Notes under the pieces: generated by a model | The model's input: only the letters and a program-made list of their open reading frames with translations | Told to the model about the DNA's origin: nothing | Databases searched by the model: none | Made by a program: the position numbers and the translations under genes | Source of the DNA: Promethearchaeia archaeon | GTDB lineage: Archaea; Asgardarchaeota; Lokiarchaeia; Sigyniarchaeales; SOKP01 | Assembly: GCA_046497275.1 (NCBI GenBank) | Contig: JAWOFX010000022.1 | Coordinates: 1-25,481, forward strand | Reading direction: 5' to 3' | Length of the DNA stretch: 25,481 nt | Shown here: positions 5,618 through 8,540 of the stretch, one piece after another | Numbering within the stretch: position 1 is the stretch's first letter | How the letters are laid out: each line of letters starts with the position of its first letter

Positions 5618-6178
5618 CTATATAAGCTTTAATATCTTTTCTAACTTTTTTATCATATCTCCTGCTGATTTACTGAAGATCCGCATCATAGGTTCCTTTC
5701 CTTTTGCTCCCGTATCCCATATTATATCTGGTACTCTACCTAATTCATTTACTGTGTTTTTAATTAGCCACTGCATTGTGGAATGTTCTCGATTTTTAAC
5801 TTTTTCTGGTTGCTCATCTCTCCTTATCTCACGTAACTCTAGATTAGTATTTTCACTAATGCCTTTGGTTAATTCGGGATGAAATTTCAGATTCATTACA
5901 ACGTTTATACTTTTATCAAATTCTTTTGCCGTAAGAATGAGTCTAGCTGTGTGATCAGAAACCCCGAATTTAATATCTCCGACAGCTTTTGGATATCCTC
6001 CGATAACAGTTATCCGTCCTTCAATAGCAGCTATATCTTCTACAGATCTTGCCTCTTTAATAGCCACAGAAATATTTGTACGGACTTCTGGGATTAATAA
6101 ACTAAATTTTCTTAAACTTGAAAAATAATCATAAATCTCCTTAACTTGGTTTATTGCGTTTAATCTGAGATTCATCAT
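5618..6178 (-). CDS. thiN: Stand-alone thiamine-phosphate synthase ThiN domain protein
   Basis: LIPEVRTNI, AAIEGRI, FGVSDHTAR, VMNLKF and PDIIWDTGAKGKEPM motifs. No ThiD or HTH domain is fused. Confidence 0.85.
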   Translation of the reverse strand: MMNLRLNAINQVKEIYDYFSSLRKFSLLIPEVRTNISVAIKEARSVEDIAAIEGRITVIGGYPKAVGDIKFGVSDHTARLILTAKEFDKSINVVMNLKFHPELTKGISENTNLELREIRRDEQPEKVKNREHSTMQWLIKNTVNELGRVPDIIWDTGAKGKEPMMRIFSKSAGDMIKKLEKILKLI

Positions 6179-6258: not shown

Positions 6259-6819
6259 TCACCCAGCTCTTTCAAACGCCCATTTTGCCTTATCATCTAA
6301 GCCCAATGCTTTATAAGCTCTGCCTAAGTATAAAAATGCATCTGGAAAATCAAAGCATTCCTTGACTAGTTTGAAAAGGTGATTAATTGCCATGTCATAT
6401 CTCCCCCTTAGATAATTTATTTTTCCTCTTAAAAACATAATTTCATACTTTTTATTTTTATAATCTTTAAATTCATCAAGGACCTCAAGAGCTTTCTTAA
6501 ATTCTTTCTGTTTAACAAAATCATGTACTAAATCTAATCCTTTCAAAAAAATCATTTTCTCTCCTATTTGATGAATTTTGTTCACATTTTCGATTTCTAA
6601 TTGATTTTTGAGTTCTTCCTCCTTTTCTTTTTCTTTCTCTCTTATGTATTCTTGAAATCTATTTATTATATTCTCATTATATTTAGTATTACACAAAGGA
6701 CAATTGAAAGAATGCGTTAACCATTCTCTTAGGCAAGATATATGAACAGCATGACCATTTGGGCACTCTTCATATGAATCTGAAATTTGCATATGGCAAA
6801 TTATACATGTGGGTGGCAT
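6259..6819 (-). CDS. RING-H2 zinc finger - charged coil - TPR protein (putative E3 ligase/adaptor)
   Basis: C5-x2-C8...C19-x3-H23-x2-H26-x2-C29-x3-W33...C40-P-L-C43. An E/K-rich helix follows (aa ~55-80), then TPR-type repeats (MFLRGKINYLRGRYDMAINHL; AFLYLGRAYKALGLDDKAKWAF). Confidence 0.85.
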   Translation of the reverse strand: MPPTCIICHMQISDSYEECPNGHAVHISCLREWLTHSFNCPLCNTKYNENIINRFQEYIREKEKEKEEELKNQLEIENVNKIHQIGEKMIFLKGLDLVHDFVKQKEFKKALEVLDEFKDYKNKKYEIMFLRGKINYLRGRYDMAINHLFKLVKECFDFPDAFLYLGRAYKALGLDDKAKWAFERAG

Positions 6820-6977
6820 TTGAATATTTTCGTTTCTTTTTAAGAATTATTTTGCAAAATATGAATCTTTAGATAATTATAAAAATCAAGTTTTTTTAAA
6901 TTGTCCTTTTCCAAAAAAGGTTAAAATGATATATTATTATAGTTGTTAAATAAATATCAATATGTAAGGGATATCTA

Positions 6978-8540
6978 TTGTCGATAAATCTAACAGAATT
7001 ATTTGAAACTTTATGCAATAATTTTTTTGAAGTGAATCAAGATATTGATGCGATTATTGTTTCTGATGTTGATGGATTAATTATTTTTGGTGAGAAAAGA
7101 GAGGAAGTGGACCTTGAGATAGTATCTGTTCTCACTTCAATAGTTCATCCCGTTTTAGAGAGAATCCGAGATGAATTTGCATTTCAACAATTTGGGACTG
7201 CCTCCTTTGACACAGAAATACATAGATTGCTTTTTATTTCAATCGATGAAAAAATTACATTAAGTCTTGTGATTGATACCATGGCATCTATAGATAAAGT
7301 ATCTCCTTACGCATATTTTTTAGCAGAAAAAACCGCAAGGATCTTAAATGCTGAAGAAGATGATGTTATCCAGCTAGATATTCCAAACTTCGAATATGAA
7401 GCGGAAAAAGCAAAAAGACTTAAAAATCAAATATATCAACTGCGACTTGATACGGGGAGAAAGTTCAGGTTTAAATTCATAATTATTGGGGATCATGAAG
7501 TAGGAAAAACTTCAATCGTGCGCCGATTTGTTGAGAATAAATTTACACATGATTATCGTGCTACAATCGGCTTGAATATCTTGACACATTCTATAAACTT
7601 CCTTGATAATGATGTAAAATTAAGCATCTGGGATATTGGAGCTCAAAAATATTTCCGTCGTTTTAGAAATACTTATTATATCGGAGCACAAGCGACTTTC
7701 ATTGTTTTTGATTTAACTGTAAGACAATCTTTTGAGAATGTAATAACTTGGTTTCAAGAAATTGATAAGTTTCTAAACACAGAAGACTTGCCTATAATAA
7801 TTGTTGGAAATAAATCAGATTTAAAAGATGAAAGAGTTGTGGATTATCAAGAAGGGGTAGAATTGACAAATTCATTATCTGAGAGAGGAATAAAAAATAT
7901 CTCTTATATCGAAACAAGTGCACTCACAGGTGAAAATATAAATGATGCATTCAGATTGATATCCTATCATTATATTATGAAAAGTAAAGAAATCGAGGAA
8001 AATAAACTTAAAGCAGATGTTTTAGAAGAAATTAATAGTATAATCCCCTTAAAAGAGAATTTAACTATTACATTTTTAACTGAGAGCAAATATTGGAGCC
8101 CAGCTCTCCAAATTTTAAATTCAATATTATCTGAATTTGAATTAGCTAATAAAATTGAAGAAAAAAATAGGCATATTTATGAATATAAAAATGGAATATG
8201 TCTACGTAATTATTCATATGATTCAATGGAGATTAAAAATTCTGATGGAATTTTTTGTATTTTCGATGCAAGGAATCGGGACTCCATTAAGCCTGAATGG
8301 AGAGATATTATTATTGAAATCATTAAAACGATAGATGAGAAAAAAGTTGTTTTAGTCGGAATTAGGGTTTCTGAAAATGTTGATTGGTCCAAAATTATGG
8401 AGGAATTTAATATAAATGAATATTTAGAGAAGAAAATGATATCCTTTTTATTTTTTAGAATTGGGGAGGAATATCGATTGGAAATTTTTGATCAATTAAA
8501 AGTAATGTTTAGTACGATTGAATCTGTTTTTCTTATATAG
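6978..8540 (+). CDS. Roadblock/LAMTOR-like domain + Rab-like small GTPase + degenerate GTPase-like C-terminal domain
   Basis: aa 1-125 are Roadblock-like (IDAIIVSDVDGLII). aa ~163-332 carry G1 GDHEVGKT, G2 YRATIG, G3 WDIGAQ, G4 NKSD and G5 ETSAL. aa ~360-520 echo the GTPase strands without the G motifs. TTG start. Confidence 0.88.
   Translation: MSINLTELFETLCNNFFEVNQDIDAIIVSDVDGLIIFGEKREEVDLEIVSVLTSIVHPVLERIRDEFAFQQFGTASFDTEIHRLLFISIDEKITLSLVIDTMASIDKVSPYAYFLAEKTARILNAEEDDVIQLDIPNFEYEAEKAKRLKNQIYQLRLDTGRKFRFKFIIIGDHEVGKTSIVRRFVENKFTHDYRATIGLNILTHSINFLDNDVKLSIWDIGAQKYFRRFRNTYYIGAQATFIVFDLTVRQSFENVITWFQEIDKFLNTEDLPIIIVGNKSDLKDERVVDYQEGVELTNSLSERGIKNISYIETSALTGENINDAFRLISYHYIMKSKEIEENKLKADVLEEINSIIPLKENLTITFLTESKYWSPALQILNSILSEFELANKIEEKNRHIYEYKNGICLRNYSYDSMEIKNSDGIFCIFDARNRDSIKPEWRDIIIEIIKTIDEKKVVLVGIRVSENVDWSKIMEEFNINEYLEKKMISFLFFRIGEEYRLEIFDQLKVMFSTIESVFLI

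Follow-up and report, generated by a model that had tools for sequence, protein, structure and literature searches.

A RING-H2, helix and TPR protein family restricted to one order of Asgard archaea, a candidate E3 ligase-like adaptor

The stretch of DNA analysed here in full (the window; 25,481 nucleotides of a Promethearchaeia archaeon contig, with a G+C content of 24-40%) carries a complete minus-strand open reading frame of 186 codons, window:6259-6819(-), that opens with ATG and closes with TGA TAA. Its product, referred to here as the RING-TPR protein, joins an N-terminal RING-H2 domain, a long predicted helix and three tetratricopeptide repeats (TPR) in one short chain, and we read it, with moderate confidence, as a single-chain RING-type E3 ligase-like adaptor. 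In such an adaptor the N-terminal RING-H2 would hold two zinc ions in a cross-brace and dock a ubiquitin-charged E2 through a conserved surface formed by Ile7, Trp33 and Pro41, while a helix of about 50 residues with a Glu/Lys-rich segment would set a fixed spacing between the RING and the C-terminal module. The three-TPR module, conserved in its repeats B and C on the groove and on the last helix, would bind a specific partner or substrate, to which the E2 would then pass ubiquitin. Of this scheme, zinc binding, docking of an E2, activity as a ligase and what the TPR module does are inferred; gene context offers as candidate substrates the thiamine enzymes of the downstream genes and the product of the divergent Roadblock-GTPase gene.

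Ubiquitin, E1, E2 and small RING proteins are already known in Asgard archaea, where the RING proteins studied are minimal and lie in ubiquitin/ESCRT clusters. Asgard RING E3s as such are not new, and the RING-helix-TPR arrangement is a new architectural variant among them. A conserved RING with its own repeat-type recognition module would show, in an Asgard order, the eukaryotic E3 design principle of E2-docking and substrate-binding domains in one chain. With its 186 residues and with relatives that may be in culture, the protein would be a compact, tractable starting point in the search for a native substrate of archaeal ubiquitylation; should it prove inactive, it would exemplify an early RING pseudoligase. 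Our literature search found no paper on an Asgard or Lokiarchaeota RING-TPR family, which may still have been described.

The features discussed below are the following (positions in the window, strand, description and basis):

6259..6819, minus: RING-TPR coding sequence, 186 aa plus stop, with RING-H2, long helix and three TPRs (ORF listing, orthologues)
6688..6810, minus: RING-H2 domain, residues 4-44 (Pfam, family profile, RING-only model, orthologue invariance)
6562..6681, minus: predicted helical region, residues 47-86 (AlphaFold2 helices, per-column hydrophobic and charged fractions)
6262..6561, minus: three TPR repeats, residues 87-186 (Foldseek, VIA-align, Pfam register, conservation)
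6820..6977, no strand: divergent intergenic region of 158 bp common to the RING-TPR and Roadblock-GTPase genes (genomic context, not protein)
5618..6178, minus: thiN, 186 aa, co-directional and 80 bp downstream of the RING-TPR stop (Pfam ThiN, 173.9 bits)

Family range and protein architecture

A collection of 5.8 billion proteins contains 112 close relatives of the RING-TPR protein, annotated as hypothetical, "RING finger domain-containing" or "tetratricopeptide repeat protein", and all the named ones derive from Lokiarchaeota/Promethearchaeota assemblies. Using a set of 61 close genomes (the window genome and its 60 nearest relatives), we found a match in 54. The genome family f1 accounts for 32 of these matches (36 genomes), with full-length proteins 45-67% identical and about 190 aa long, and the family f2 for 13 (14 genomes), with 32-40% identity and about 215-250 aa; in families more distant than these two, matches are at the level of the RING only. 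The earlier note had suggested an HMM search for the architecture across Asgard genomes, and a profile search of a phylum-wide sample of 251 genomes found it in 49 of the 54 f1 genomes and in all five f2 genomes, with no family member at E <= 1e-12 in 191 genomes from 26 other families of the phylum. Searched exhaustively with the HMM, a set of 1.84 billion representatives yielded 36 proteins at E < 1e-30, most of them spanning most or all of the profile, and outside the family and its fragments the matches span only the RING or only the TPR. The ESM Atlas holds one cluster for this protein, with 95 members, all archaeal, and NCBIfam assigns no family to it. The outcomes of the close-genome, phylum-wide, HMM and Atlas searches therefore define a discrete, order-restricted and mostly single-copy family, present in f1 and f2.

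AlphaFold2 models the whole protein with a mean pLDDT of 94.5 and a pTM of 0.65 (31-sequence alignment). In this model the RING part consists of two short strands, which form a beta-hairpin, and a helix at residues 27-33, and it is followed by a short helix (49-54), one continuous helix of 48 residues (56-103) and the helices 107-115, 121-137, 141-154, 159-171 and 175-185. No solved RING-helix-TPR chain appears among the structure matches of the whole model by Foldseek and VIA-align, which are dominated by the TPR, and COP1 (RING, coiled coil, WD40) was found in the ESM Atlas at a TM of 0.41 only. An intact reading frame, a RING above the Pfam cut-off, a confident model and a conserved family show that the RING-H2/TPR gene of the earlier note is real.

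Several relatives depart from the compact form. Longer relatives of 332-675 aa exist, and hints of a partner were sought in their extensions (Rosetta-stone), which carry no Pfam domain. In one f2 genus (L042:5901-8000 (-), L044:4212-6239 (+) and L039), the orthologue has 561-699 aa; in the two forms of that genus that were followed over their full length (675 and 699 aa), RING-helix-TPR is preceded by an additional RING at the N terminus, a coiled-coil-like segment and a long Ser/Lys/Pro-rich low-complexity linker. In one relative with a 100%-complete genome (G019:C37:16996-17522), in-frame TAG and TAA stop codons interrupt the orthologue, through either pseudogene formation or a mistake in the assembly.

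The RING-H2 domain and its possible competence as a ligase

By sequence pattern, the putative zinc ligands are C5, C8, C19, H23, H26, C29, C40 and C43 (C3H2C3), spaced C-x2-C-x10-C-x3-H-x2-H-x2-C-x10-C-x2-C, with Trp33 four residues past the sixth ligand and Pro41 within the motif CPLC. Pfam zf-RING_2 (PF13639) matches residues 4-44 with 29.4 bits (cut-off 27.3; E 9.7e-7), and the RING of the window gene scores 32.2 bits for zf-RING_2 in a six-frame search of the genome. The RINGs of 32 orthologues, which are 36-73% identical to that of the window, keep all eight ligands, and C5, C8, C19, N21, H23, H26, C29, W33, C40 and P41 are invariant. The full C3H2C3 set with Trp33 and Pro41 that had been claimed from the single sequence is thus where it was placed and is conserved. 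With no change in N21, W33, P41 or any of the eight ligands over this range of RING identity, and with the family occurring in 54 of the 61 related genomes, the gene is beyond chance. The classical E2-contact positions of RINGs correspond to Ile7, Trp33 and Pro41; position 7 is Ile in 30 orthologues and Val in two, and the other two positions are the same in all 32. Further conserved residues are His9 (31 of 32) and the aromatic residue at position 47 (Tyr in 30, Phe in two), Tyr47 being invariant within the 31-sequence alignment.

The family profile matches the RING-H2 domains of RNF165/ARK2C, RNF24, HRD1, RNF38, Arkadia and EL5 with E values from 5e-7 to 3e-5, those for RNF165/ARK2C, RNF24, HRD1, Arkadia and EL5 lying between 5e-7 and 8e-6. 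An AlphaFold model of the RING only, made with the 32 orthologues, has a pLDDT of 91.6 and its best Foldseek matches are RNF165, gp78, HRD1, RNF38 and RNF12 (TMq 0.64-0.70, rmsd 1.5-2.0 A over 45-48 columns), with E values of only about 2e-3 because the domain is small. Nearly all the matches listed for this model are RING or U-box E3 domains and several were solved in E2~Ub complexes. As modelled, the domain has the cross-brace RING fold, and the ligand pattern predicts that it binds zinc. The protein resembles the eukaryotic RING-H2 E3s RNF165/ARK2C, Arkadia, RNF38, RNF24, HRD1 and EL5 in its C3H2C3 pattern, in the Ile/Trp/Pro E2-contact positions and in its predicted fold. It differs from them by the x3 spacing that separates the third ligand from the fourth (C-P-N-G-H, whose Asn is invariant), by a linchpin that is Asn, His, Ser or Asp and not Arg, by the family-specific His9 and Tyr47, and by the fusion of the RING to a helix and three TPRs.

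Closer in lineage, the srfp RING of Caldiarchaeum and the RING E3 of the Asgard operon are likewise RING-H2 domains with a functional Ile and Trp, from lineages that have Ub, E1 and E2 (PMC5654768; bioRxiv 10.1101/2023.07.25.550441). In the Caldiarchaeum protein, Ile30 and Trp58, which match Ile7 and Trp33, are needed for in vitro ubiquitylation, and the substitution R69A impaired activity (PMC5654768). These archaeal RING proteins are small and lie in Ub/E1/E2 or ESCRT clusters, and the Caldiarchaeum one needs its Arg69; the RING-TPR protein, unlike srfp, is encoded outside any ubiquitin cluster, has no cationic linchpin and is equipped with a TPR module of its own.

At the linchpin position, which comes right after the last Cys, the window protein has N44 and the 32 orthologues have Asn (15), His (7), Ser (3), Asp (3), Arg (3) or Phe (1). 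N44 is not the cationic residue (Arg or Lys) that marks a competent RING E3 and, of the sequence arguments against a fully competent ligase, the linchpin is the main one. In RNF38, Arg works most efficiently at this position, Lys and Met come next, and activity was minimal in the rest of the variants assayed (PMC12326332). With Asn or another non-cationic residue at the linchpin, the intrinsic activation of E2~Ub is probably weak, and activation may call for something more, for instance the invariant Tyr47, self-association or the binding of a partner.

A variable, non-cationic linchpin is also what would be expected of a RING pseudoligase or scaffold, in which the RING would be a zinc-stabilised interaction module, perhaps docking an E2 or another partner, and the whole protein a TPR adaptor without ubiquitin transfer. 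The near-inactivity of non-cationic RNF38 variants (PMC12326332) speaks for this explanation, as do the lack of an operon link to Ub/E1/E2 and the fact that the TPR, and not the periphery of the RING, is best conserved; RING pseudoligases exist (PMC11992055). We regard it as the main rival of the E3-like adaptor, possible although doubtful, since conservation of the Ile7/Trp33/Pro41 surface at 36-73% RING identity is hard to explain without E2 binding. Moreover, RBX1 has Asn at the equivalent linchpin position, yet is active.

The earlier note had held that a genome without E1, E2 and ubiquitin would speak against a ligase. This objection falls away, as the assembly (3.85 Mb, 98.9% complete) encodes a ubiquitin-family protein of 84 aa with a C-terminal GG-I, five ThiF-family proteins, one of them an E1-like ORF with a length of 459 aa or more, a UQ_con E2 (76.6 bits, with an HPN motif and a downstream Cys), a UQ_con-RWD protein and five JAB-domain matches. 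UQ_con is present in all 61 genomes, the window genome and its relatives. The Ub, E2 and E1-like genes lie on other contigs and none adjoins the RING-TPR gene.

Two of the E2-related genes have unusual structures. The sole strong UQ_con E2 gene of the assembly (L001:1462-1884, contig G000:C79, minus) is a 141-codon frame whose first 51 codons include neither ATG nor GTG nor TTG; three relatives (G004, G012 and G017) have frames of 141-145 codons that show this same partial UQ_con match, and the E2s of 170-180 aa that are present in most relatives were not found in the window genome. The second gene (L002:1405-3141, contig G000:C45) shares its contig with the E1-like ThiF gene; its product of 578 aa has UQ_con (36 bits) at the N-terminal end and an RWD/UBC-like domain at the C-terminal end.

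Five ThiF-family E1-like genes and this 578-aa UQ_con and RWD protein would suit an E3-like factor for another modifier (of the SAMP/Urm1/MoaD type), or a partner of the UQ_con-RWD protein instead of ubiquitin and a canonical E2. We consider such a role improbable in a genome that has a GG-I ubiquitin and a UQ_con E2; to our knowledge, SAMP/Urm1 conjugation needs no E2 or E3, and we know of RING domains working only with UBC-fold E2s.

The E3-like adaptor is thus supported by a RING-H2 above the Pfam cut-off, by profile matches to solved, active RING-H2 E3s, by the superposition of the RING-only model on RING-E2~Ub complexes together with the conserved ligands and E2-contact residues, and by a confident TPR fold with highly conserved repeats B and C. 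The Ile and Trp requirement of srfp, the reconstituted Asgard E1/E2/RING cascade (bioRxiv 10.1101/2023.07.25.550441) and the Ub, E1-like and E2-like genes of the genome point in the same direction. Counting against it are the non-cationic linchpin, the lack of an operon with Ub/E1/E2, unlike the characterised archaeal RING proteins, the missing canonical start before the first 51 codons of the strong E2 gene and the existence of RING pseudoligases.

The charged helix and the TPR module

Beside the RING, residues 47-59 form a predicted amphipathic helix with a conserved hydrophobic face (Y47, I51, I52, F55, Y58 and I59) that presumably packs on the RING. Then comes a Glu/Lys-rich stretch of ten residues (60-69) that is 48-87% charged across the family and that has no hydrophobic seam by per-column fractions; hydrophobic positions return at 70, 74, 79, 82, 85, 89 and 92, where the helix turns into helix A of TPR 1. 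This region had been described both as a charged helical linker and as a coiled coil. The linker agrees with the continuous predicted helix 56-103 and its Glu/Lys stretch, but the charged residues 60-69 leave no hydrophobic seam for the coiled coil. A dimer formed through such a coiled coil is likewise not supported, as this stretch has no heptad seam and the seam 79/82/85/89/92 continues into TPR-A. For this helix, a rigid charged spacer is a better reading than a coiled coil.

In the C-terminal part, Pfam TPR_14 scores 23.8 bits against a cut-off of 23.5, and TPR_11, TPR_2 and TPR_16 match residues 95-185, all below their cut-offs. The repeats extend over approximately 91-124 (A), 125-158 (B) and 159-186 (C), and the capping helix is absent; the register of B and C was set by the Pfam alignments and that of A was derived from A110 and L114. 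Repeats B and C contain the TPR consensus residues G8, Y11, A20, F24 and A27. Foldseek against the PDB superposes the model on CTPR3 over 90 columns (rmsd 1.7 A, E 9e-5), and VIA-align against 48,161 chains places residues 87-186 on 3-TPR domains with Z scores of 13-15.8 across 97-100 residues. Since residues 87-186 superpose on three-repeat modules with both programs, the two to three TPRs counted previously are three rather than two. Conservation in the protein is highest in TPR-B and TPR-C, over almost their whole length; the conserved positions include F129, L130, K133, Y136, Y164 and K/R167 in the groove and, on the last, uncapped helix, an invariant outer face of K177, A178, W180, A181 and R184.

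A chaperone tail had been proposed as a target of this module, which would make the protein a CHIP-like quality-control ligase that docks chaperone C-terminal tails by its TPR. The predicted module does superpose on CHIP (2c2l, Z 14.5, rmsd 2.4 A over 98 residues; 7tb1, Z 13.0) and on Hop TPR1 (1elw, Z 14.2), the latter almost without gaps (model residues 88-186 on chain residues 1-99), but dozens of unrelated 3-TPR modules score equally well. The residues that form the carboxylate clamp of Hop, which we take to be K8, N12, N43, K73 and R77, align with L95, H99, L130, D160 and Y164, and the family has mostly I/V/L, E, L, D and Y there. The Lys/Asn/Asn/Lys/Arg set of a two-carboxylate clamp is therefore missing, and with Leu/His/Leu/Asp/Tyr in its place an EEVD tail of the CHIP/Hop type is an unlikely ligand. 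A CHIP-like ligase would also have to account for a RING instead of a U-box and for the reversed order of domains, and we consider it very improbable; chaperone-tail binding was accordingly set aside as a candidate function of the TPR, the clamp Lys, Asn and Arg not being conserved and the CHIP/Hop superposition being no better than that of many 3-TPR modules.

As an arrangement of domains, the E3-like adaptor invites comparison with the TPR-bearing E3s of eukaryotes to which it had been likened. CHIP/STUB1 also has a three-TPR module and an E2-binding domain in one chain, connected by a long helical region, but its E2-binding domain is a C-terminal U-box and not an N-terminal zinc RING-H2, its TPR has the carboxylate clamp, and the sequences are unrelated beyond generic TPR. 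Rapsyn, TTC3 and LONRF1-3 likewise have TPRs and a RING in one chain. Rapsyn has its RING-H2 at the C terminus, together with seven TPRs and a coiled coil. A LONRF1 cluster is among the structure neighbours in the Atlas for its TPR part only (TM 0.48), and LONRF proteins, unlike the RING-TPR protein, have an additional Lon substrate-binding domain. We have no evidence for common descent of the architecture in rapsyn, TTC3 or LONRF and in this family. The analogy holds for the layout and not for the order, which is the reverse of that in CHIP and rapsyn, nor for the U-box; the architecture is analogous to those of CHIP, rapsyn, TTC3 and LONRF, and the protein is a member of none of these families.

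Gene neighbourhood and candidate partners

In the window, the RING-TPR gene is surrounded by thiN and by genes for a membrane protein, a Roadblock-GTPase and an Iso_dh protein. The 520-aa Roadblock-GTPase gene (6978-8540, plus strand), which is single-copy in the window genome, had been put forward as a possible target; the basis for this is the divergent arrangement. In f1, the RING-TPR gene is head-to-head with an orthologue of this gene in all 19 loci, with divergent intergenic distances of about 100-252 bp. This arrangement is absent from f2, where the three-domain Roadblock-GTPase is not adjacent to the RING-TPR gene and where the five genomes searched have only Roadblock-GTPase relatives of about 350 aa. 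In addition, two f1 genomes, G226 (L063, L064; 95% complete) and G028 (L065; 92% complete), each have two copies of the three-domain Roadblock-GTPase, 52-54% identical to that of the window, and no RING-TPR gene was found near them or anywhere in the assembly; three other f1 genomes lack both genes. Obligate coupling to the GTPase was rejected, as f2 does not keep the pairing and G226 and G028 have the GTPase without a detectable RING-TPR. Real as it is, the pairing is therefore only family-deep and indistinguishable from plain synteny.

On the other side of the gene, 16 of the 19 f1 loci have thiN or, more often, a thiDN fusion of 467-468 aa next in the same orientation, separated from RING-TPR by as little as about 20-27 bp; past it comes thiC in the convergent orientation. 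The thiDN fusion is found in relatives (for example L018:66-1472 and L024:2100-3503), and the window has the stand-alone thiN only. In f2, thiDN or thiN and thiC are near RING-TPR in four of the 14 loci, thiN or thiDN being 0-2 genes downstream. The thi linkage is older than the GTPase linkage.

An ABC transporter abuts RING-TPR in 7-8 of the 14 f2 loci (L042:1574-5830; L035, L039-L041, L044 and L046) and comprises a 424-aa ORF that is a candidate binding protein, a fused permease of 585 aa and an ATPase. Its assignment as a thiamine transporter was rejected: the NCBIfam models for ThiP and ThiQ score far below their cut-offs and are tied with those for molybdate, sulfate and phosphonate transporters.

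The boldest form of the E3-like adaptor, a first substrate-dedicated archaeal E3, specific to Lokiarchaeales, whose TPR client would be either the Roadblock-GTPase-pseudoGTPase or the co-encoded thiamine enzymes, is in our estimation unlikely. If it were true with the GTPase as client, ubiquitin would have controlled a small-GTPase switch before eukaryotes; with a thiamine client, the conserved block RING-TPR > thiDN < thiC would be a turnover system for short-lived enzymes of thiamine synthesis.

Finally, the alignment of 20 f1 intergenic regions reveals a conserved A/T-rich block in the middle of the divergent region, at about 6885-6905 in the window; in the alignment the block ends with ATTTTTAA, and its consensus is near TAATAAAAATAA-n-TATTTTTAA. 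From its sequence, this block is possibly a TATA/BRE element that serves one or both of the divergent genes.
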